Positions 1-12,037 of a stretch of DNA of 41,716 nucleotides are shown here, one piece after another. Every line of letters starts with the position of its first letter. Position 1 is the first letter of the stretch. Position numbers and translations under genes: made by a program. Below the pieces are notes generated by a model. The model was not told the DNA's origin. It saw nothing but the letters and a program-made list of their open reading frames with translations, and ran no database searches. Source of the DNA: Candidatus Geocrenenecus huangii (GTDB lineage Archaea > Thermoproteota > Nitrososphaeria_A > Caldarchaeales > Wolframiiraptoraceae); NCBI GenBank assembly GCA_023254095.1, contig JALNLM010000012.1, positions 1-41,716 on the forward strand, in the 5' to 3' direction.

Positions 1-89
1 GAATCTCATAAAGAGAATTGAAAGAAAATGCTTTTTTTAAGCTGTTTTCCACAAATTTTTTATTCGAATCTCATAAAGAGAATTGAAAG
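1..89 (+). CRISPR. End of a CRISPR array: two identical 24-bp repeats (1-24, 66-89) and a 41-bp spacer (25-65). The array probably continues beyond the window edge.
   Basis: GAATCTCATAAAGAGAATTGAAAG occurs twice, ends in the typical archaeal ATTGAAAG, and has a spacer-length gap. A possible further spacer (90-126) and degenerate repeat (127-152) follow. Confidence 0.9.
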
Positions 90-196
90 ATAATCACATA
101 GTTCATTTCCTCTACTTTCACTCTAATATTCTAGTACACCTGAATTTTAAAGTAATATGGAGAGGCAAGCGAAAGTTATTAATTACTTAGATTTGT

Positions 197-595
197 TTAT
201 TCATTCTTCCCATCTTTTAAATTGTTGTTAGAAGTCTTACTTAGGAAGTCGTTGTCGGTTGAATCACTGCTTGCTGTCTTCTTGTTTATCTCCGCTTTGA
301 TCTCATCCAATGTCTTACCATATGTTTGAATATTAAGCATTTTCGCGAACCTTATTATATGCTCATCTTGGGATTCTTGTCTATTTTCAGAGATTTGCTC
401 CGATAGTTGAGATTCTGCCTCCTCTATTGTTCTAGATTCTTTCTCGATCTGCTCAATTAATGTTGATGAGGCTTTTTCATATTCTTTTTTTGCTTGAGCC
501 AGTGCTTTCGATAATTGGACTATCTTTTTCGGATCATAGAATATTAACAGTAGGACAATAATCCCAATGAAAAGCCATTCTATCCCTTCTATCAT
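197..595 (-). CDS. tatA: Twin-arginine translocase TatA/TatE-family subunit (paralogue 1)
   Basis: N-terminal G-x-E-W TM helix, hinge (FYDPKKI) and amphipathic helix (LSKALAQAKKEY); similar to 10171..10521. Confidence 0.8.
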   Translation of the reverse strand: MIEGIEWLFIGIIVLLLIFYDPKKIVQLSKALAQAKKEYEKASSTLIEQIEKESRTIEEAESQLSEQISENRQESQDEHIIRFAKMLNIQTYGKTLDEIKAEINKKTASSDSTDNDFLSKTSNNNLKDGKNE

Positions 596-906
596 TTCCT
601 CCTAATACTGACTTAGCATCTTAATTTATATCTTTAATATTCAATACTTTACTCCATACAAGTGTCTTCCTAAAAACCTGAAAAAATCTCACCAGATAAT
701 AGCGATACATAGAATATTAATAACGGATGGTGAAGTGAGACTGGATCAGCAATAACCTTCTTTAAAGAAATACAGTAAGGACTTCAAAGTCATGAAAGAA
801 TCTAGTCTCTGACATCTGCTGGTAGACATAATGGTTGAGGATCATGCGTAGAAACTAGTTTTAAGCTTTAGGGTTACGTTTTTTAGTAGCCAAGGATATT
901 TATAAT

Positions 907-2130
907 ATGTACTTTTTGAGGTGTAAGTATATGGGTAGGAAATTATCTCCCGAGGAGCAACCTTGGTGCATCGATAAAGTTTCCGGGAAAGTCTTAATCA
1001 ATAAAGGTGTAGAGAATGTTTGCATAGATAAGAGCACTATATGCTATATAGATGGATTCCACAGTAAACTGTACTATAGAGGATTCAGCATAGAAGAACT
1101 AGCTCAAAAAAGTACATACGAGGAGGTCGTATATCTTTTACTCTATGACAAGCTACCAACTAGAAGAGAACTAACAGATTTCAGTGGGTGGATGAGGGAA
1201 GAGAGAGATATTCCGAGAGAAGTAGATGAACTACTTTGCAGGATTCCGAGAGATGTTGAGCCGATGGAGGTGCTTAGAACCGCCGTCTCATATCTTGGAA
1301 ACCTGGACCCAGGAAGACACGATACTAGTAGAGAGGGGATGTATAGGAAAACCATAAGGTTGGTGGCTAAGATACCGACTATAATTGCTCATTGGTATAG
1401 GATAAGGAATAATCAGAGTGTCGTAGATCCTGATCCTAGATTAGCTCATGCAGAAAACTTTCTATACATGATGCATTGTGAGAAGCCTGATAGTCTATCT
1501 GCGAGAGCAATGGATGTCTCATACATATTGTTGGCTGAGCATGAGATGAATGCTTCAGCATTTACTGCCGTCGTCATAGCATCCACGTTAAGCGACTACT
1601 ATAGCGCTATAGTTGGAGCTATAGGCGCTCTTAGAGGCCCCCTCCATGGTTATGCTAACGTAGCAGCTATGAGGCAGTTTGAGGAGATCGGTAGCCCCGA
1701 TAATGTGGAGAAGTGGTATAAGGAAAACATCCTGACTGGGAAGAAGAGAGTTATGGGTGCAGGACATAGAGTTTACAAGACATACGATCCTAGAGCAAAG
1801 ATATTCAGGGATTACGCTAAACAGTTCGCTGACAAAATGGGCGGCAGAGTTAAAGAATTCTATGAGATAGCCAATAAACTTGAAGATTTAGTGATGAGAG
1901 AGCTATGCGAGGCTAGGAATATATGTACTAACTGCGACTTCTGGAGCGGAATAGTATACTATGCGATGAAGATACCCATAGATCTTTACTGTACATTGTT
2001 CGTGGCGTCTAGAACGATAGGATGGTCAGCTCACATACTAGAATACGTCGCGGACAATAGAATAATAAGACCCAGGCTCTACTACGATGGAGAAGTGGAT
2101 AGAGAATACATACCGATAGAGAACAGGTAG
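907..2130 (+). CDS. gltA: Citrate synthase / 2-methylcitrate synthase family; true start may be ATG 931
   Basis: LYYRG, EHEMNAS, GPLHG, GHRVYK..DPRA, NxDF and RIIRPR motifs. Confidence 0.9.
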   Translation: MYFLRCKYMGRKLSPEEQPWCIDKVSGKVLINKGVENVCIDKSTICYIDGFHSKLYYRGFSIEELAQKSTYEEVVYLLLYDKLPTRRELTDFSGWMREERDIPREVDELLCRIPRDVEPMEVLRTAVSYLGNLDPGRHDTSREGMYRKTIRLVAKIPTIIAHWYRIRNNQSVVDPDPRLAHAENFLYMMHCEKPDSLSARAMDVSYILLAEHEMNASAFTAVVIASTLSDYYSAIVGAIGALRGPLHGYANVAAMRQFEEIGSPDNVEKWYKENILTGKKRVMGAGHRVYKTYDPRAKIFRDYAKQFADKMGGRVKEFYEIANKLEDLVMRELCEARNICTNCDFWSGIVYYAMKIPIDLYCTLFVASRTIGWSAHILEYVADNRIIRPRLYYDGEVDREYIPIENR

Positions 2131-2152
2131 TCATCCATCTCATTATCCTGTC

Positions 2153-2165
2153 TTTTTTATTTTTT
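2153..2165 (+). terminator. Oligo-T archaeal terminator after citrate synthase
   Basis: TTTTTTATTTTTT about 25 nt after the stop codon. Confidence 0.45.
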
Positions 2166-2232
2166 GAAAACGAGGAGGCAGTGAGAATTAATTAGGAAAG
2201 TGTCCCGTACTATGGATTGGCTACCTAGTATG

Positions 2233-3552
2233 TTATCTTTCTAGAGCTTCTCTCTTCTTCTTTAAAGATACTTTAAGCGTTATGAGCTTTTCACCTGAGA
2301 AGAGCCAAGCTGAGATGGTCAAGAATACTAAAGTGAATAATCCTGTTACCGCTGTCGCGGACAGCGCTTCTAGATATTTTCCAGCGTAGACGTAATCTAT
2401 TGCTCTGAAGAAGTGGGTGTACGGGTTTAACATCATTATATGGGAAGCAGGGAAGGCTAACTCATCAATGTTTATGAAAGCGGTTAAGAAAAATGCTGGA
2501 AACATTGGGAGAAACGTTGCGGCTCCAACTAGCTGCTGGGATCCCCTAACATCTTCTGCAAGTACTCCGACTAGAATGCCTATAGACATCGTTAAAAGCA
2601 TGGCCACAAATATTGTGAGCATCAGGATGACTGCGCCCGAAGAACTCAGTGAGAGTATTGATACGGTAGGGGCATATACTCCGAAGTTTTCACCTTGGCT
2701 TGACAATTCTCCAAGGTTGCCTATCCTTGAGAATGCTAGCATTAAATATATTCCAAATCCTGCTACAAATGAAAACATGCCTATCAAGGCAATGATGGTT
2801 GAAGCAAGCATTTTGGCGAAGAGTATCTTAAGCCTGCTGATTGGAAGCGTAAGAAGTATTTCTAGGGTCTTGGCTTCTTTCTCCAATCCGATACTAGTTG
2901 CAGAGATCGTGGCGGTGAGGGCCACAACTATTAGAGCAACTAGAGGTAAACCATAAACTGTGGAAAGAATAGTGTTCACCATGATTGTTGGAGAATAGTT
3001 TAGGATATCCCCCCTGTAGAATGTGTTAGATTCTTCTTGAATTGGATTGCTTAGGAAATCCAAGTCGACTCCTCTCTCCTCAGCCAGTTTTCTAGATATT
3101 GATTGATAGGCATTCGAGAGGATTCCGGAAATCTTGCTGACGCTGACTAAACTACTTATTTTCACAGTCTTCACATTATAATAGACATACACTTTGGACT
3201 TCTCGCCTTCCGAGATCCTCTCTGTAAAATCTTTAGGAATCTCGAGATAAGCTACCACCCCTTTATCGAATAGTTCATCTAGGCTTCTGAATCCTTCATC
3301 CGATATAATTTCGACCTTGTTCTCTTTAATCTTGTCTACTAAGAGTTTGCTGTATGTTCCTTTATCTAGGTCGTTTACGGCTAAAGTTATCGTTTCGATG
3401 TCTCCCGTCCTAGTTGTTTCAATCATTGTGAACGAGAGTATCCCACCGATAGTCGGGAATAAGAGTAGGGGCATTAATATTACTCCAACAAGGATCGTCT
3501 TCTCCATCAGTAGTTCTTTTAGCTCTTTATGTATCAGTGCTCTTAAACTCAT
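2233..3552 (-). CDS. ABC-2 type (NatB-like) exporter permease
   Basis: N-terminal TM, extracytoplasmic loop, EKEAKTLEILLTLP motif, multiple C-terminal TMs; overlaps the ATPase gene. Confidence 0.85.
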   Translation of the reverse strand: MSLRALIHKELKELLMEKTILVGVILMPLLLFPTIGGILSFTMIETTRTGDIETITLAVNDLDKGTYSKLLVDKIKENKVEIISDEGFRSLDELFDKGVVAYLEIPKDFTERISEGEKSKVYVYYNVKTVKISSLVSVSKISGILSNAYQSISRKLAEERGVDLDFLSNPIQEESNTFYRGDILNYSPTIMVNTILSTVYGLPLVALIVVALTATISATSIGLEKEAKTLEILLTLPISRLKILFAKMLASTIIALIGMFSFVAGFGIYLMLAFSRIGNLGELSSQGENFGVYAPTVSILSLSSSGAVILMLTIFVAMLLTMSIGILVGVLAEDVRGSQQLVGAATFLPMFPAFFLTAFINIDELAFPASHIMMLNPYTHFFRAIDYVYAGKYLEALSATAVTGLFTLVFLTISAWLFSGEKLITLKVSLKKKREALER

Positions 3553-4274
3553 CTTCTCACAGCCTTAATGAATACTTCTTCAAGATTTTCAGCCTCATAC
3601 TCCTTTTTTATCTGCTCAGGCTCCCCCTCAACAATTATTGATCCATTCTTCATTAACGCTATTCTATCACATAGATATTCTACTTCAAGCATATTATGGC
3701 TTGAGACGATACATGAAGCATTCATTTGCTTAACATATTCTTTTATCAACTTTCTGACATATACGGCGTGTTCAACGTCTAGGCCGCTTGTAGGTTCATC
3801 GAGTATCAAAACCTTAGATTTACCCATTAGAGTTCGAGCTAGCATTACCCTCCTCCTCATCCCTTTACTATAAGACCCCATTGGAGCATCTACAAGCTCT
3901 CCCAAACCACTTATCCTTACGCCATATTCTACAGCCTCTTCGAGATCTCTGTTTCTAAGCCCCTGTATCGATCCATTAATCTTCAAGAACTCCCTTCCAG
4001 TTAGATGCTTGTATACTCCTACATCTTCGGGAAGATAGGAAACTATTCTTCTTACATCACTTGTATCTTTTATGACGCTTTTCCCGAGTAAGTATACGTC
4101 GCCTTTGTCGGGTTTAAGGATCGTAGCCAAGATTCTCAGGGTAGTTGTTTTGCCTGCACCATTCGGCCCAACGATCCCGTAGACTTCCCCCTCACCTACT
4201 TTGAAGCTTAGCTCTCTCAATACATATCTTCCTCCAAACCTCTTCCATATATCTACGGCGTCGACAGCAATCAT
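3549..4274 (-). CDS. ABC exporter ATP-binding protein (NatA-like)
   Basis: Walker A GPNGAGKTT, signature YSKGM, Walker B LILDEP, H-loop SSH. Confidence 0.93.
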   Translation of the reverse strand: MIAVDAVDIWKRFGGRYVLRELSFKVGEGEVYGIVGPNGAGKTTTLRILATILKPDKGDVYLLGKSVIKDTSDVRRIVSYLPEDVGVYKHLTGREFLKINGSIQGLRNRDLEEAVEYGVRISGLGELVDAPMGSYSKGMRRRVMLARTLMGKSKVLILDEPTSGLDVEHAVYVRKLIKEYVKQMNASCIVSSHNMLEVEYLCDRIALMKNGSIIVEGEPEQIKKEYEAENLEEVFIKAVRR

Positions 4275-4445
4275 GTTTATAGCAATCTTACATTCTATAA
4301 CCCAGCTAATAAATGTTGGAGAAGAAAAGATCGAGTACGCATCGTGAGACTGGTCACAATCTTCATACGTAAAACTTTATCAATTATGGAATTGCTGTCT
4401 TGAAAGCTAACTTTTATATCATCGTCAAACTTATGAGAGGAAAGA

Positions 4446-5246
4446 ATGGAGAGTATTGGGATTATTGGGGCTGGGCAGATAGGTTCAGCTATAGCTAAGG
4501 TGATTGCAGAAACTGGTAGATATCATGTGATAGCTTCTAGGAGGAACCTATCAAAAATTAAAGAACTTGAAAACCTGGGCGTAAGACTGACCCAGAACAA
4601 TAAAGAGGTTGCCTCTAGATCAGACATAGTGGTGGTCTCTGTTAAACCTCACAAGACGATCGAGGTTTTAAGAGAGGTATCACAGTATTTGAAGAACAAG
4701 ATCGTGATCTCTGTTGCTGCAGCTATACCTATAGCAAGGATGGCCAGAGCCGTTCCCGAAGCAAAGATCGTTAGGGCTATGCCTAACATTAATGTACTGG
4801 TAAAGTCTAGTCTTACGGCATATGCTAAAGGGCCGAACCTCACCGAGGAAGATGTAGGAAAAGTACAGGAACTCTTCAAGCTGATGGGCGAATACGTCGA
4901 GGTTGAAGAAGAATTGATGGATGCAATTACCGCGTTGAGCGGTAGTGGTCCAGCCTATGTTTCTACGTTGATCGAGGCCATGGCTTACGCTGCGTTGAAG
5001 GTTGGGATACCTAGAGAGCTGGCATACTATTCTGCAGCGTATACTGTTTACGGCTCTGCTAAACTGTACTTGGAGACAGGGTTGCATCCATCGGTTATAA
5101 AGGAAATGGTTTTAACGCCAGCAGGTGTAACTATTGAGGGAATATTCTATCTTGAAGAAGGTGGAATAAGAACAGCTATAATGAGAGCGGTCGAGGCGGC
5201 GACGAAGAAAGCACAAGAAATAGCTGAAAGACTTAACAAAGACTAA
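4446..5246 (+). CDS. proC: Pyrroline-5-carboxylate reductase
   Basis: GxGxxG, VKP, RAMPN, TALSGSGPAY and TPAGVT motifs. Confidence 0.95.
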   Translation: MESIGIIGAGQIGSAIAKVIAETGRYHVIASRRNLSKIKELENLGVRLTQNNKEVASRSDIVVVSVKPHKTIEVLREVSQYLKNKIVISVAAAIPIARMARAVPEAKIVRAMPNINVLVKSSLTAYAKGPNLTEEDVGKVQELFKLMGEYVEVEEELMDAITALSGSGPAYVSTLIEAMAYAALKVGIPRELAYYSAAYTVYGSAKLYLETGLHPSVIKEMVLTPAGVTIEGIFYLEEGGIRTAIMRAVEAATKKAQEIAERLNKD

Positions 5247-5321
5247 CAAATCACAGAAACGATATTCTAGGAGGAATTATTTCTCCTACTTATAGAAGGG
5301 TTTAAGTTGGAAGTCTAGATG

Positions 5322-5834
5322 TCAGGAGGCTTTCTTCTTTTCCTTCTGTTTTCTTTTCTCTCTTCTTTCAATTCTTCTCGTCAACGTATTAGGTAGCTGT
5401 ACGTCTTTGTCATTTCTTACCGATGGGTGATGTGGGTCAACCATTATTACTTCAAACCATTTGTAGAGTCCGTCTTCAGCTATCCAGTATGCTCCAAGAG
5501 GATAGAGGTTTGGATACTTCTTGACTGCACGGTTTAATGCTTCCTCCTTCATCGTTACGTTTACTTTATGTTTGGTTACTCCAATGGTCTTCGGTCTTCT
5601 ACCTGCTCTAGCTCTAGGCTTTTGGAATCCTCCTCTCCTAACTCTTACCCTTAGCACTATGAAGCCCCGTTTATCTTTGTACCCGAGTTGGCGTGCACGG
5701 TCGAGTCTAAGCGGTTTATCAACCCTAACGACAGCAGGCTGCCTTCTCCACTTAATCAACCTCTCCTTCATTAAGGCTTTGAGTTCTTCGGGCTTCTCCC
5801 TCCAAAGCTCGTTAAGCTTACTGTAGAACGACAT
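5322..5834 (-). CDS. rpl15e: 50S ribosomal protein L15e
   Basis: RLDRARQLGYK, RVRVRRGG, YKWFEVIMVDP. Confidence 0.95.
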   Translation of the reverse strand: MSFYSKLNELWREKPEELKALMKERLIKWRRQPAVVRVDKPLRLDRARQLGYKDKRGFIVLRVRVRRGGFQKPRARAGRRPKTIGVTKHKVNVTMKEEALNRAVKKYPNLYPLGAYWIAEDGLYKWFEVIMVDPHHPSVRNDKDVQLPNTLTRRIERREKRKQKEKKKAS

Positions 5835-6071
5835 ACTCCGTTATCTCCTTAACAAAAGGTCTCGAACTCTCTATTTAACTATAGTATGTCTCCTAAGAGA
5901 TTTAGACTCTGAGATTGAGGGTTGGCCTAAACACATGTCCATCCTAGGAGCATGTAAGACTCAAGTAAAAAATTGCCTACACCGGTTACTTTTCTATTTA
6001 TTAAACCTTGGCGGTCTCAAGCATGAAGTAAGGAGAGAAAGCCTGTTAAGTAGTGAGGTGTATCTTCCATT

Positions 6072-7100
6072 TTAGAAAAATCTAAAAGTTTTCCCAGGGA
6101 TGTATCTTCCTCTGATCGGTATCTTGCATCCACATCTTGGACACCCGTCATCATCAAGTTTAAAGTATGTTACTCTATAGTTTTTTCTAGAGATTACTAT
6201 CTTACCGCATCTTGGGCATCTGGTATCTTCTAGACCTTCTATCCCTACATTTCCCACATATACGTAGTTTAAACCATTCTTCTCAGCTTTTTCTTTTATT
6301 GCAAGCAGAGTGGATAAAGATGTAGGGTGGTTTCTCCATACATTTGCTGGATAGTACCTATTTACGTGGAGTGGAGTGTCAGGCGTAAGCTCATCTAGAT
6401 ACTTATCGAGTATCCAGTCCACGCATTCCTCGAAATCATTATAACCTGTAACGACTAGGTATACCATCTCTACATGCCCTCCTAGATCGATTATCCTCCG
6501 AGCATTACGGAAAACTACGCTGTGGTCTACTGATGCTATGGCCTTCTTAGCGGTGGGGCAGCCCTTAATGTCTATGCTGAAGCCGTCTGCACCATGCTCG
6601 ATCAATTCTTGGATTGCCCGAAGTGTAAAGTATCCGTTTGTAACGATTGTTCCATATAGGTTAAATTTTCTTCCCAGTTCGAATAAGTCTAGCAAGTAGT
6701 CGAAGAGTGTTGTCGGCTCATTGAAGCTTGCACATAATCCCTCATCTTTGTTTCTGAGAGCCTTCTCCACAAGTTCTCTAGGCCGTATTATCCTAGAAGT
6801 TCTCGGAAGATCTGAGAAGCTTAAATGATTATTCTGGCACCACGGGCAGTAGAATGTACAGCCGTATCCTGAGAATGTTAAAGATGTACTATTTGGCCAG
6901 TAATGGAAGAATGGTTTAATCTCTATAGGTCTACTCTCGACAGCGCTGATTATGCCGTAGCCTTCATGTAATAATCTCCCATCAACATTTACATAATTCT
7001 TACAGACTCCTCTAGCACCTTTAGCTAACCTACATCTTCTCTCACATACTTGACACTCGATTAAGTCGTCGAGCTTAACCCAGAGCTTCCCAACCTTCAA
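6072..7100 (-). CDS. Radical SAM enzyme, AmmeMemoRadiSam/PFL-activase-like family
   Basis: N-terminal CxxCxxxC, PIEIKPFFH, CTFYCPWCQN, FNEP, C-terminal CPRCG twice. Confidence 0.88.
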   Translation of the reverse strand: MKVGKLWVKLDDLIECQVCERRCRLAKGARGVCKNYVNVDGRLLHEGYGIISAVESRPIEIKPFFHYWPNSTSLTFSGYGCTFYCPWCQNNHLSFSDLPRTSRIIRPRELVEKALRNKDEGLCASFNEPTTLFDYLLDLFELGRKFNLYGTIVTNGYFTLRAIQELIEHGADGFSIDIKGCPTAKKAIASVDHSVVFRNARRIIDLGGHVEMVYLVVTGYNDFEECVDWILDKYLDELTPDTPLHVNRYYPANVWRNHPTSLSTLLAIKEKAEKNGLNYVYVGNVGIEGLEDTRCPRCGKIVISRKNYRVTYFKLDDDGCPRCGCKIPIRGRYIPGKTFRFF

Positions 7101-7189
7101 CTCCTATCCGCATAATTCGTAAGACCAATATATTTTAATTCTATAGGGTTTTCTTGACTTTGGTTACTTAATGTTAATACTGAGGATGT

Positions 7190-7645
7190 ATGATGTTTAT
7201 GCTGGATATGCGTATTGATAAGATGCTTCTACAGGTGCTCTGTCATGCTACTGAAGATGAAGAGAAAGTTATGAAAGCTGTAGAGAACGTTGTTAGGTTC
7301 GATAGGATGAGTAAGATGAAGATCGTTACCCAGGTCTTGAAAGGTTACTATGGTGACCCCCTAGCAATGATCAGGTTCGAAGTATTGGATCCAGATACTT
7401 CTCTAGAGATAGTTAAAGACATATTCTCTAGGCTTTCAGAATATGAGAGGCATGATTTAATCGAGAACTGTATTGAGGGGGGAAGGCATGGAGGGAAACT
7501 CTACATCCGGCTAGATAAGCAGGCAGCCTACAATGGGGTTTTGAGGCTCTCTGATAAGGATCCTATAAGAATAGAGGTAGCGGTAAGAGGAGAGGTCAAC
7601 AAGCTGGTGAACATGTTAAACATTCATAGCAAAGAAGATATATGA
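7190..7645 (+). CDS. Exosome/RNase P superoperon-associated RNA-binding protein (COG1325-like)
   Basis: HATEDEEKV, GYYGDP, LYIRLDKQAAY; directly upstream of rpp30. Confidence 0.85.
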   Translation: MMFMLDMRIDKMLLQVLCHATEDEEKVMKAVENVVRFDRMSKMKIVTQVLKGYYGDPLAMIRFEVLDPDTSLEIVKDIFSRLSEYERHDLIENCIEGGRHGGKLYIRLDKQAAYNGVLRLSDKDPIRIEVAVRGEVNKLVNMLNIHSKEDI

Positions 7646-7687
7646 TGAGTAGAGTGCTATGCATGGTCCAAGATTGAGGGGGTAGGT

Positions 7688-8368
7688 TTGGGGAGAAGCT
7701 ACGTGGATTTCTGGATAAACTTGGATGAAGAAGTAGACCAGTCTGAGATGCTTTCAGAGATAAGAAAGCTCGGTTTCAGAAGAGTGGTTGTATCTTCGAT
7801 GGATAAGGCTAGGCTTGAAGAATTCAAGAAGCTTGGTGAAAGCTTCGGTGTAGAAGTTTACGGTAAGATTGTTCTAGTGCCCGAGGATAGGCCAGCCCTC
7901 CTCAAGGATTTAAGAAGTAGGAGAGGAGAATATGAGGTGGTCTCGGTTATATGTAATAATCTGGAGGTTGCTTTAACATCTGCTAGAGATAGCAGAGTTG
8001 ATACCGTAATCTTTCCTCCGGGAAAGAAGTTTAGGATCGATAAGGGTGTAGCGGCGGTAATCAAGAATTCTATCGAGCTACCTTTTAGATGGTTAGTTGA
8101 TGAAACTACTAGGAGAGAATTCATAAGATTGGCATTTGAAGTCGTCAACCATTTATTTGGGAAGACTAGCATAATCGTCTCTTCGAGTGCTTCTAGACCA
8201 TTAGAGCTGCGCAGCCCATTTGAGCTTTCTTCTCTTCTAGAGGTTTTAGGGCTGGATAGGAATGTAGCTCTAGATTCTGTGTCTACTATTCCTGGAAGAA
8301 TCATTGAGACTAATCTGTTAAAGCTTTCACCCAGCTATGTCGCGAGAGGTGTATTGAGGGTTGGTTAA
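7688..8368 (+). CDS. rnp3: RNase P protein subunit Rpp30
   Basis: ARDSRVD, IVSSSAS..ELRSP, position before Pop5. Confidence 0.8.
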   Translation: MGRSYVDFWINLDEEVDQSEMLSEIRKLGFRRVVVSSMDKARLEEFKKLGESFGVEVYGKIVLVPEDRPALLKDLRSRRGEYEVVSVICNNLEVALTSARDSRVDTVIFPPGKKFRIDKGVAAVIKNSIELPFRWLVDETTRREFIRLAFEVVNHLFGKTSIIVSSSASRPLELRSPFELSSLLEVLGLDRNVALDSVSTIPGRIIETNLLKLSPSYVARGVLRVG

Positions 8369-8669
8369 GAGAAAGAAGAGGTACATAATTGTTGAAACAT
8401 CCTCAAACATACCTCTAGATGTTTTTAGAAAGCTTGTTGAGAAAAGCTATCTAGAATTGTTTGGCGAATTCGGTTTAATCCAAGCAAACGTAAAGGTAGT
8501 CAAGAAGATCGATAGCACGTTTGTTCTAGAGTGTTCTCATGGCTCTGTCCCGAAGCTGATTTTATCGCTTTCCTCTATTACGAGGCTTGAAGAAGGCGCG
8601 ATCCGTTTTAGAGTTGTAAAGATTGCAGGGACGGTCAAGAAGGTGCGAGAAATAATTGTTGGGGAATAG
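8361..8669 (+). CDS. rnp2: RNase P protein subunit Pop5/Rpp14
   Basis: KRYII, LFGEFG, C-terminal GTVKK. Confidence 0.82.
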   Translation: MVKRKKRYIIVETSSNIPLDVFRKLVEKSYLELFGEFGLIQANVKVVKKIDSTFVLECSHGSVPKLILSLSSITRLEEGAIRFRVVKIAGTVKKVREIIVGE

Positions 8670-9297
8670 GCTTCTAGAATCATTATTCGTATGGGCTTCT
8701 TCTATGACTCTATTACTATTGTCAGGGTTTGCCGAGACTTCTGGATATCTATATTCAACAATTGTAAATGAGTCCGCTCTGGCAGCCCCATGCTTGGTTT
8801 ACCTAGCTGTGAGGAGGGATGTCTTGTCGAGCATGCTGAGGTCGTTGTGGAATATTAGAATGAGGCATTCTGTCTTGATGGCTTTAACAGTGTGGGTTCT
8901 AGGTTACTTTCTCACCTATGTGCAGGACCTCTTTATGCCGCCTCCATCATGGTATGTAGAGAAGATGAAGAGCTTGGCTCCCACGAACTATGTTGATTTC
9001 ATCTTAGCGTTATTATTAACTTGGCTTTTGGTTGCACCTGCTGAAGAATTGTTATTTAGGTGGGTTCTACTCAATCCTATGGTTGGCTCTCTAGGGGTGA
9101 GGATGGGGGCCATCTCTTCGGCGGTTATCTTTTCATTTTCACACCTAGATCCTTGGAATATCGTCTCACCATTCGTGATGGGTTTAGTCGCTGGATTAAT
9201 GGTAGCTACGAGTAGAAGCATATTGTCGGCTATATTTATTCATGGAGTTCATAACACGATATCGATATCTTTAATCTATCTTTCAAGTCTTCTTTGA
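8656..9297 (+). CDS. CPBP (CAAX/Abi) intramembrane metalloprotease
   Basis: EELLFR, FSFSH, HGVHN motifs. Confidence 0.9.
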   Translation: MLGNRLLESLFVWASSMTLLLLSGFAETSGYLYSTIVNESALAAPCLVYLAVRRDVLSSMLRSLWNIRMRHSVLMALTVWVLGYFLTYVQDLFMPPPSWYVEKMKSLAPTNYVDFILALLLTWLLVAPAEELLFRWVLLNPMVGSLGVRMGAISSAVIFSFSHLDPWNIVSPFVMGLVAGLMVATSRSILSAIFIHGVHNTISISLIYLSSLL

Positions 9298-9488
9298 GAC
9301 CGGGATAACTCATGTGGAGAATATCTTCTAAGACTCTATTTAGGATCGTGGAGTTCGAGGTCATGATCAATATCTTCTCCTCGACTGGTCTATTCTGGAG
9401 ATGAGCTGTATAGGTGAAGGGACGTGTTAATGTATCATCTCTGCTTAAATAGAATATTTATTAAATGGCTTCTGTGATGGTTTATTGA

Positions 9489-9947
9489 ATGTCTTCGAGA
9501 GAGTACCGGCATATTGTTAGATTTCTCGGAACAGACTTAGACGGCTCTCTAAAGATACCTTATGCTCTAGCTAAGGTTAGAGGTATAGGGATTATGTTGG
9601 GATATGCTATAGCTAGAGCGGCAAAAGTGGATGCAGAGAAGAGGCTCGGCCTCCTAACAGACCAAGAACTTCAGAGGCTTGAAGAAGTTGCTAGAGACCC
9701 TGCTAGGCATGGTATTCCGGCATGGATGCTGAATAGGAGGAGAGACCCTATCTCGGGGAAAGACCTACAACTATATGGTTCAGACCTAGTATTCACTATA
9801 AGAGAGGACATTAGGAGGGAGATGATGATAAAGTCTTGGCGCGGGATGAGACACTCATTAGGGTTGAAAGTTAGAGGCCAGAGAACTAGAACAACTGGAA
9901 GAGTAGGAACAGCAGTAGGGGTATCAAGGAGAGAAGCAAGAGCCTAG
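9489..9947 (+). CDS. rps13: 30S ribosomal protein S13
   Basis: IVRFLGTDLDG, WMLNRRRD, RHSLGLKVRGQRTRTTGR. Confidence 0.96.
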   Translation: MSSREYRHIVRFLGTDLDGSLKIPYALAKVRGIGIMLGYAIARAAKVDAEKRLGLLTDQELQRLEEVARDPARHGIPAWMLNRRRDPISGKDLQLYGSDLVFTIREDIRREMMIKSWRGMRHSLGLKVRGQRTRTTGRVGTAVGVSRREARA

Positions 9948-10010
9948 AATATTCAACAACCAATCCCTAATCCTCCACATAAAACCGCATGAAAATCCAA
10001 ACAGACACTA

Positions 10011-10034
10011 CTTTTAATTCTCTTTATGAGATTC
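10011..10034 (-). CRISPR. Solitary CRISPR repeat, inverted relative to the array at 1-89
   Basis: Plus strand CTTTTAATTCTCTTTATGAGATTC is the reverse complement of the array repeat with 1 mismatch (23/24). Confidence 0.9.
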
Positions 10035-10035
10035 C

Positions 10036-10158
10036 GTGTCTAGGCTTTTCAGGTTCTATAACTATAGCTCCGTTGAGAAGGCATATAATATTCTATTGTT
10101 TACTGCTGGATTAAGCTTTAGAGGCGTTAGTAAGAGATATTGTTTAAATAATAGTTGA
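10036..10158 (+). pseudogene. N-terminal fragment of an IS6-family-like transposase
   Basis: Frame reads VSRLFRFYNYSSVEKAYNILLFTAGLSFRGVSKRYCL. GLSFRxVS matches the IS6 transposase at 41547 (GLSFRCVS), and both share TAAGCTTTAGA. Family call is from recalled archaeal IS6 sequences. Confidence 0.6.
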
Positions 10159-10170
10159 ATCAGAAATACT

Positions 10171-10521
10171 ATGAGACACATGCCTATAGCTGGTCTTGAG
10201 TGGGTGATCATCGGGATAATAATCGTAGTCCTGATCTTATGGGGGCCTTCCCAAATTCCCAAGATCGCTAAAGCGTTAGGAGAAGCTAAGAAGGAATTCT
10301 CGAAAGCAGCAAAAGAAACGGAACAAGCATCTAGAGAAGTGGAAAAAGTAGTTCAAGATACTGTACAACCGTTTACTGATACTGCTAAGACCTTCTCCGC
10401 AGAAGTACAAGAGCTAGACGCTGAGCTCATGAAGCTAGCGAAGATGCTTAACATAAGCACTGAGGGAAAAACTAAGGAACAGATAGCTAACGAGATCGCT
10501 AGGAAGATTTCGAAGCAATAG
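10171..10521 (+). CDS. tatA: Twin-arginine translocase TatA (paralogue 2); start may be ATG 10180
   Basis: GLEW TM helix, WGPSQIPKIAKALG hinge/amphipathic helix, directly upstream of tatC. Confidence 0.92.
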   Translation: MRHMPIAGLEWVIIGIIIVVLILWGPSQIPKIAKALGEAKKEFSKAAKETEQASREVEKVVQDTVQPFTDTAKTFSAEVQELDAELMKLAKMLNISTEGKTKEQIANEIARKISKQ

Positions 10522-10706
10522 ATGAATACAAAAATATAGTGATCGTCAAGAATACCGTAGATAGTGAAGATGTAGAGCAGAAATACTTGTACTATTTCAA
10601 TCCACCTCTTCACTCTGCAGAATCTTTAGAAAGGTTTTTATTTTCTAAGTCGAGGTGACAATTAGGTTTAGTAAATTAGGGTTTCTCTCATGAGGTAAGA
10701 AGAATC

Positions 10707-11600
10707 ATGAAAACAAAGAAAGACGCGAAAAAACAACAACCTGTCAGAGATATGCGTGAAATGACCTTAATGGAGCATCTTGCTGAACTCAGGGATAGAC
10801 TCAAAATATGCTTGATAAGCATCGGTGTCTCTACTCTGATAATGTTAGCATTTCCAGCTCAAATCCTTAACCCTATGGAGCTGCTTTCAGGCATATACAA
10901 ACCTCTCGTCTCAATTATTCTACAACAAATAGTAAATCTAGTTAAACCTCCAGAGATGCAGATAATAGGGGGAACTATAACTGCACCTCTTGAGATTTAT
11001 TTTATTGCTTCTCTCGTTTTCGGGTTAGGCTTCAGCAGCCCCATAGTTGGATACGAGGTATACAAGTATATCGATCCAGCGCTTTATCCTCATGAAAGAA
11101 GACTCGTATATCCTTTCGTAGCTGCCTTCACCGGATTGTTCACTACAGGTTTGTTCTTTGGATTGTTCTTAATATCGCCATTTACTTTCAGGGCCATGAT
11201 AATATTCTTTGACCTCGTCGGTGCTCTACCAATGATAACGGTAATGGATTTCTACATGACTATACTTGTCGTAACTGTCGCAACGGGAGCGATCTTCACA
11301 ACACCAATATTCATCATAATATTTGTGAGAATAGGACTGATAAGTACGAAGAGCATTGAAAAGAATAGAAAGTGGATTTACGGCATCGGCTACATAGTTG
11401 CAGCAATAATAACCCCCGATGGAGGAGTCTTCGCAAACCTGATTCTACTAGGCTTCCTCATAGTTTTAGTGGAAAGTGGAATAGTGATAGCGAAGAGATA
11501 TGAGAGAAGGAGAGCTGAAGAAGAGAGACTATGCCCCTTCTGCGGAGAATATATGGGAGATAGAATATTCTGTCCGCATTGTGGAAGATCCAGACTATGA
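10707..11600 (+). CDS. tatC: Twin-arginine translocase TatC with C-terminal zinc ribbon
   Basis: MTLMEHLAELRDRL, PALYPHERR, AAIITPD, multiple TMs; C-terminal CPFC-x9-CPHC. Confidence 0.95.
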   Translation: MKTKKDAKKQQPVRDMREMTLMEHLAELRDRLKICLISIGVSTLIMLAFPAQILNPMELLSGIYKPLVSIILQQIVNLVKPPEMQIIGGTITAPLEIYFIASLVFGLGFSSPIVGYEVYKYIDPALYPHERRLVYPFVAAFTGLFTTGLFFGLFLISPFTFRAMIIFFDLVGALPMITVMDFYMTILVVTVATGAIFTTPIFIIIFVRIGLISTKSIEKNRKWIYGIGYIVAAIITPDGGVFANLILLGFLIVLVESGIVIAKRYERRRAEEERLCPFCGEYMGDRIFCPHCGRSRL

Positions 11601-11937: not shown

Positions 11938-12037
11938 GGCCGCGGCTGGGATTCGAACCCAGGCATCCGGCTTTCTCTCTAGATCCACTGTGTGCTAGTC
12001 CACAGGCCGGAAGGCTAACCGCTACCTCACCGCGGCC
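11938..12037 (-). tRNA. tRNA-His(GUG) with a 27-nt intron at 37/38 (11973-11999); G-1 and C73 encoded, CCA not encoded
   Basis: Acceptor stem GCCGCGG/CCGCGGC, T-loop GGTTCGAATCC, anticodon stem CCGGC/GCCGG with CT-GTG-G, BHB-like intron. Confidence 0.93.

Follow-up and report, generated by a model that had tools for sequence, protein, structure and literature searches.

A solitary, inverted CRISPR repeat beside rps13 in Candidatus Geocrenenecus huangii is probably the stranded end repeat of an array

A single CRISPR repeat that lies among housekeeping genes, far from its array and on the opposite strand, may belong to a small regulatory RNA gene or may be what is left of an array, and the intergenic region between rps13 and tatA of Candidatus Geocrenenecus huangii raises the question of which of the two applies. 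The window analyzed here is the entire 41,716-nt contig C21 of an assembly of 32 contigs and 1.6 Mb (GCA_023254095.1). Its first 89 nt (1..89, plus strand) form the tail of a CRISPR array that is cut by the contig start and consists of two perfect repeats (1-24 and 66-89) and one 41-nt spacer. A sequence-only reading had reported a 23/24 copy of this repeat on the opposite strand, 10 kb from the array, and had offered two explanations for it, a regulatory guide or decoy processed by Cas6 and a relic of an array. The copy is present: the minus strand at 10011..10034 reads GAATCTCATAAAGAGAATTAAAAG, is inverted relative to the array tail, and shares 23/24 bases with the plus-strand repeats at 1-24 and 66-89, while no match with ≤3 mismatches was obtained in 100 dinucleotide-preserving shuffles. 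The sole mismatch is a G>A change within the final eight bases (ATTGAAAG to ATTAAAAG), a position consistent with the 8-nt handle predicted to start at 10018. Unlike the lone repeat, the last repeats still joined to their arrays (66-89 in the window and C28:68-91) are perfect.

Chromosomal housekeeping genes flank the lone repeat on both sides. Read along the minus strand, the repeat is followed by T-runs after 17-30 nt and by a total of 63 nt of unique sequence (9948..10010, read from 10010 to 9948) up to the stop codon (9945-9947) of the convergently oriented rps13 (9489..9947, plus strand; Pfam Ribosomal_S13, E 1.3e-37), as the sequence-only reading had estimated. On the other side is tatA (10171..10521, plus strand; Pfam TatA_B_E, E 2e-11), with tatC (10707..11600, plus strand; Pfam TatC, E 1.1e-39) downstream of it. 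The repeat is separated from tatA by the dinucleotide CG (10035..10036, minus strand) and an internal piece of a transposase gene of the IS6 family (DDE_Tnp_IS240; 10037..10147, plus strand), and homology with the tatA upstream region of relatives begins at about 10135. A TTATAT element that had been placed about 50 nt upstream of the repeat occurs 49 nt away (10083..10088, minus strand, read from 10088 to 10083), inside the transposase gene fragment. The claim that no convincing second repeat exists at spacer distance also held: on the minus strand between 9880 and 10160, the best other match is only 12/24, and the stretch at spacer distance 44 (9943-9966) matches 11/24, both within the level of shuffled flanks (n = 1000), which usually peak at 12-13/24. 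The only Rfam match in the window is a tRNA (11938-12036, minus strand), which spans 99 nt compared with a 71-position model, and an intron in this gene is probable. Farther along the window, two pairs of direct repeats (23638-23707/24958-25027, 77%; 34745-34836/35746-35837, 72%), each spaced 1.0-1.3 kb apart, look like tandem paralogous genes.

A scan of the genome for the repeat with ≤4 mismatches gave 21 matches in total, located on C12 (n = 13), at the start of C28 (n = 2), on C21 (n = 3), at the end of C20 (n = 1), near the end of C32 (n = 1, with one mismatch), and on C13 (n = 1, weak, with four mismatches). Leaders precede the first repeat on C12, C20, and C32, and long conserved blocks common to all three, including GAATTCCC..AGGGA, fix the direction of array transcription. 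The leader-distal tails are C21:1-89 and C28:1-91, and three leader ends (C12, C20, and C32) thus stand against two tails plus the lone repeat. In an alignment with the three leaders, the conserved blocks are absent upstream of the lone repeat, and only the final 2 nt are common, as the CG at 10035-10036 equals the last two leader bases in 3/3 leaders of the genome. This CG may mark a leader-repeat junction or, alternatively, be the final dinucleotide of a lost spacer. The leaders of the arrays adjoin housekeeping genes rather than cas genes. The array spacer sequence at 29-58 had no matches in a genome-contig scan, from which the own genome was possibly left out.

The weak match on C13 is a second lone repeat-like unit (GATTCTCATGAAGAAGATTGAAAG; C13:145753-145776, minus strand, locus L036), which agrees with the repeat at 20/24 positions and has an intact ATTGAAAG end. 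It is intergenic, upstream of an aminoacyl-tRNA-synthetase-like ORF, and is present in 1/76 genomes of the order, while any match at ≤4 mismatches was found in 0/10 shuffled genomes. At a distance of 1.7 kb from this unit (C13:147433-147786), C13 also carries a piece of the IS6-family transposase gene found beside the lone repeat of the window.

The gene order in related genomes gives the lone repeat a place. In all six congeners whose rps13 locus was fetched (G001, G002, G003, G005, G006, and G007), rps13 faces a metE-like gene (PF01717) in convergent orientation, and the two genes are -24 to 120 nt apart. No rps13 match was obtained in a seventh congener, which is 59% complete. In Ca. G. huangii, a 266-nt leader and, at the contig end, a first repeat come after the metE-like gene (C20:46884-48008). 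Together, the metE-rps13 synteny and the leader on C20 indicate that an array lies or lay between metE and rps13. In the window, rps13 is followed by 63 nt and then by the lone repeat, in the orientation that the far end of the C20 array would have. Thus, the lone repeat fits the place and orientation of the last repeat of a metE-rps13 array, with C20 presumably linked to C21. No spacer or further repeat precedes it; CG and the transposase gene fragment are found there instead. The order Pop5-CPBP-rps13 of the window also occurs in G001 and G003, and the rps13 DNA identity to the window is 83% for G007 and G002 and 80% for G001. Among the 40 relatives searched, no rps13 match extends beyond window position 9960.

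The transposase gene fragment covers residues 11-50 of a 216-residue protein, and 27 of its 40 codons (68%; BLASTP E 1e-16) encode residues identical to the full-length copy L020:8-658. The intact relatives L020 and L021 match PF13610 with 58.1 and 46.8 bits, both above the cut-off of 27, and the inverted ends of the L021 element are situated ~90 nt before its start codon. The window fragment lacks the DDE domain as well as an IS end with terminal inverted repeats; 10037-10147 is, judged from these sequence comparisons, an internal gene piece cut at both ends. DNA homologs of the fragment are found at C22:20601-20712 and C23:1850-1919 of the same genome and also in G004, G007, G033, and G038, and the contigs of Ca. 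G. huangii hold only fragments of that transposase gene (C13, C17, C21, and C22, plus the DNA remnant on C23). The bases matching TTATAT in other copies of the IS are coding sequence and variable. Position 10037 was considered as the terminus of an IS and rejected, as full-length copies place it 30 nt inside the gene. A further candidate, L003:2146-2691, which adjoins rps13 in G002 and was taken for a transposase from its C-terminal letters, was dropped because it has no Pfam family. Likewise, a stem around the repeat or a MITE, suggested by inverted similarity between the trailer start and the start of the IS fragment, was attributed to chance (score 15, equaled by 296/2000 shuffles). In G033 (contig C42, locus L017), a scrambled 373-nt element (1969-2341) is MITE-like debris of the same IS; at its two ends, the first 50 nt of the transposase gene region, counted from residue 11, occur as inverted copies of each other.

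The other end of the rearrangement that this setting suggests is close to the array tail, where a second TatA paralog, tatA2 (197..595, minus strand; 132 aa), is encoded with a weak Pfam TatA_B_E match (E 0.002, below the cut-off). In the window, tatA2 and tatA are 9.6 kb apart and on opposite strands. The best homolog of tatA2 in G001 (G001:C30:8138-8497, 53% identity) is arranged in tandem, 280 nt upstream of tatA. The congeners G003, G005, G006, and G007 have a second TatA gene at another site, which corresponds to approximately 70.8-71.0 kb on C2 of Ca. G. huangii; only the genome studied here (G000) and G001 lack a second TatA gene at this C2-type site and have the longer paralog near tatA instead. 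In the four congeners, the C2-type site adjoins a tRNA-like stretch. The second TatA gene has changed its location among these genomes.

Flipping the segment from ~90 to 10036 resolves three irregularities of the window at once: tatA2 comes to lie in tandem before tatA-tatC as in G001, rps13 becomes convergent with the array in agreement with the metE-rps13 synteny, and the repeats at 1-24, 66-89, and 10011-10034 all have one orientation. The putative inverted segment (90..10036, ~9.9 kb), delimited by synteny, comprises tatA2, the genes for citrate synthase, Pop5, and a CPBP protease, rps13, and the lone repeat. Its left breakpoint would fall in the stretch between the last array repeat and the tatA2 stop codon (90..196), which may include the rest of a severed last spacer. 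The left break was not located more precisely: positions 90-260 and 10100-10185 gave no alignment above chance with the G001 intergenic region, positions 90-200 contain no IS remnant (alignment scores at chance, with 220-297/300 shuffles equal), and two stretches of 90-127 had no matches in viral contigs. An uninverted allele was not found, and the lone match to a metagenome contig shows the present arrangement.

These gene orders, together with the orientation of the repeat, make it probable that the lone repeat is the stranded terminal repeat of a CRISPR array that was cut off by an inversion and has no dedicated function. The ancestral locus would have had the metE-like gene followed by the leader, repeats and spacers, the last repeat, and a 63-nt trailer, with rps13 facing the array from the other side. 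An inversion of ~9.9 kb would have had one break within the last spacer, at a distance of 2 nt from the terminal repeat, and its second break between the tandem tatA2 and tatA genes, where the IS debris is found today. As a result, the last repeat, the trailer, rps13, and ~9 kb of genes would have been flipped away from the array and would now lie beside tatA and the decayed IS6-family fragment, while the remainder of the array would end at window positions 1-89. The opposite strand of the lone repeat would thus be due to the inversion. A single ~9.9-kb inversion is the simplest history, in which the array on C20 presumably continues into window positions 1-89 and the IS may have participated. 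The sequence-only reading had offered an array relic as its second explanation, and this part is supported by the synteny, the inversion, and the transposase debris, while no positive evidence emerged for its first part, a Cas6-processed regulatory guide or decoy. Even as a relic, the repeat could still be transcribed and cut.

Several observations count against the stranded-end model. The end of the C20 array and window positions 1-89 are both at contig ends, and a second tail exists on C28. The tandem tatA2-tatA order is found in only one congener (G001), and by rps13 DNA identity this congener is not necessarily the closest one. Because the IS fragment is internal to the transposase gene, the model requires at least one further deletion. 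In addition, the CG next to the repeat fits a leader-repeat junction better than the end of a random spacer, as the last two bases are the same in 3/3 leaders. Owing to these weak points, including the C20 link and the left break, we retain some chance, albeit a small one, that the repeat is a functionless relic that arose by another route.

Such a relic could be the first repeat of a second, opposite array upstream of tatA, or a hybrid formed by recombination between inverted repeats of two arrays, in both cases with the leader later overwritten by the IS; otherwise, an array may have collapsed to a single repeat. These routes would account for the CG immediately upstream of the repeat and for the inverted repeat copies on either side of the 9.9-kb segment, a pattern expected after recombination between inverted repeats. 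Furthermore, the recombinogenic nature of repeats favors standalone copies, and many solitary units are probably spurious, according to Shmakov et al. 2023 (PMC10120712). However, an extra array between tatA2 and tatA would be required, which G001 does not have, no leader blocks are left beyond 2 nt, and two matching bases carry little weight. The stranded end repeat remains our preferred reading.

A working crRNA-like gene, as envisaged in the first part of the sequence-only reading, is improbable. It would require a minus-strand transcript that starts in the transposase remnant (e.g. from the TTATAT at 10088-10083) and is cut by Cas6 8 nt from the repeat end. The product, with the handle ATTAAAAG followed by the downstream sequence, which would act as the guide, would enter a type I-A-like or type III-B complex and serve as a regulator or decoy. 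The genome encodes proteins suited to this scenario, with a Cas6-like protein (C2:772-1611; 56.3 bits, slightly below the cut-off of 58.65), a module of Csa2/Cas7 and Cas3-HD on C1, and Cmr2 on C22; no Cas1 gene (PF01867) turned up in the assembly, which is 96% complete. Also in favor of this scenario are the near-perfect repeat and the T-runs 17-30 nt after it. Against this reading, neither leader homology nor a second repeat is present, and a search for five cas families placed none of them on the window contig.

In favor of a working unit, RNA data indicate use of the variant handle somewhere in nature. In the sediment metatranscriptome run X16, contigs that align to 10009-10044 contain an array with the exact ATTAAAAG variant (four copies, 0 differences, period ~63-65 nt), and such an array may be retained in a close strain. 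The contigs of this run further comprise parts of rps13 (9627-9811) and tatA (10205-10609), which are 98-99% identical to the window, and none joins the lone repeat to its flanks; as contigs, they are uninformative on strand, transcript ends, and absence. A scan for bacterial-type promoters and terminators, whose models are not relevant to archaea, gave nothing near the lone repeat. The predicted fold of the minus-strand RNA (9948-10062) is ordinary, at -24.8 kcal/mol with a z-score of -1.54, and 17/200 shuffles were equally stable.

A crRNA-like regulator would also be expected to have a target, and the guide has none above chance in the genome or at the cas loci. For the initial 20, 30, and 40 nt of the guide, the best whole-genome matches were 16/20, 20/30, and 27/40, within the range of 20 shuffles each. 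At the cas loci (38 kb), the 12-nt seed had two matches with ≤2 mismatches, fewer than the average of 3.55 obtained with 200 shuffled seeds. CCN, a motif known from work on Sulfolobus type I-A systems and not derived from the present genome, precedes neither of these two matches. Very short matches between guide and target may still exist. The comparison that had been proposed, of the downstream 40 nt with the genome and especially with cas promoters, gave no partial matches above shuffled controls, and the first 23 nt of the guide had no exact match in viral contigs. An 18-nt exact match between 9960-9977 and C13:164212-164229 is located 34-51 nt past the repeat and falls in an ABC-transporter permease gene in mRNA sense (blastn-short E 0.004); it is unexplained and probably due to chance.

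The sequence-only reading had named a lack of conservation in close relatives, together with a lack of transcription or processing, as refuting the regulatory unit, and conservation is indeed lacking among the relatives searched. The unit of repeat plus trailer was not found in the 40 relatives searched, including the region beside rps13, and the exact repeat variant occurs in 1/76 genomes of the order, namely only in the genome studied here. No match to the variant was found among the contigs of species-representative genomes, which possibly do not include the own genome. Outside the assembly, the lone unit was seen only in near-identical populations (X9 and L035).

In a more specific and still more doubtful version, the unit would be transcribed and cut by Cas6 into a fixed crRNA-like RNA with the handle ATTAAAAG that is antisense to the 3' end region of rps13 and guides a type III-B (Cmr) complex to read-through rps13 mRNA. 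If true, the repeat complement beside the target would act as a self mark and result in quiet trimming of the rps13 mRNA or in titration of Cas6 and effectors rather than in immunity, and the inversion would have accidentally made a self-directed guide.

That the junction is an assembly artefact, with an array end chimerically joined to an IS-like stretch upstream of tatA, can practically be dismissed despite the 32 contigs of the assembly and the location of all arrays at contig ends, because contigs from two separate studies bridge both junctions. From run X1, possibly the source sample, a 5070-nt contig spans 9300-10800 with 0 differences, and one 11903-nt contig of run X9, from another study, spans the same positions with eight differences, none of them listed at 9948-10170. 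The metagenome contig L035 has the same arrangement, including the identical join and intergenic region (99.96% identity over 2476 nt), and, on sequence identity, probably represents the same population as the window. In addition, the repeat variant and both of its flanks occur only once in the genome. Assuming that the X9 contig and the window are collinear, the contig would by extrapolation begin at approximately position 64 and carry both the array tail and the lone repeat. The window sequence also occurs in hot-spring metagenome runs; in run X10 (depth ~5), contigs end at 9950 and resume at 10062, a gap that carries no weight for or against the junction. Under the same assumption of collinearity, the X1 and X9 contigs both stop near the tRNA at 11938-12036.

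The lone repeat calls for caution in the search for regulatory crRNAs: a near-perfect solitary repeat resembles a candidate for a CreA-type or decoy RNA, yet the gene order of relatives points to rearrangement debris. The locus would also be a case, in a thermophilic archaeon, of a small inversion bounded by a CRISPR array on one side and by IS6-family debris on the other, and would add to the view that arrays and insertion sequences are structurally weak sites in genomes. For Thermotogales, DeBoy and colleagues reportedly described in 2006 that CRISPR arrays are located at the boundaries of chromosomal inversions. In both cases, an inverted stretch of chromosome ends at an array; the present case differs in that it is archaeal, comprises only ~10 kb, and has one repeat severed from the array, and recombination between repeats is only conjectural here. 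Among the matches listed in a literature search for CRISPR repeat remnants at inversion breakpoints, only unrelated genome-editing work was found.

Among CRISPR-derived RNAs and repeats, the closest counterparts are degenerate terminal repeats and trailers of arrays and solitary repeat units (SRUs) that array recombination or decay leaves behind (PMC10120712). They share with the lone repeat a single repeat with one change, unique sequence after it, the orientation of the far end of a neighboring array, a lack of conservation, and the absence of a target. The lone repeat differs in being 10 kb away and on the opposite strand, as a putative result of the inversion, and in abutting transposase debris. 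We consider it a further instance of this known kind of debris. The CreA antitoxin RNAs of CreTA modules and regulatory mini-arrays likewise involve an ectopic repeat and a potential Cas6-cut RNA with a repeat-derived handle (PMC9458426, PMC10120712). Regulatory mini-arrays are characterized, according to PMC10120712, by their location in cas loci, their conservation, usually two repeats, and a promoter guide with seed and PAM; 0/4 of these defining features are found in the lone repeat. RNA anti-CRISPRs (Racrs), the solitary repeat units of viruses, also contain a solitary copy of a host repeat, but they are borne by viruses or other mobile elements (PMC10651486), whereas the lone repeat lies between housekeeping genes, and the only mobile trace next to it is a 111-nt dead gene fragment. 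Should the unit nevertheless be expressed, it would illustrate, in nature, how array fragments could give rise to regulatory crRNA-like genes, a route proposed by Shmakov et al. 2023 (PMC10120712).
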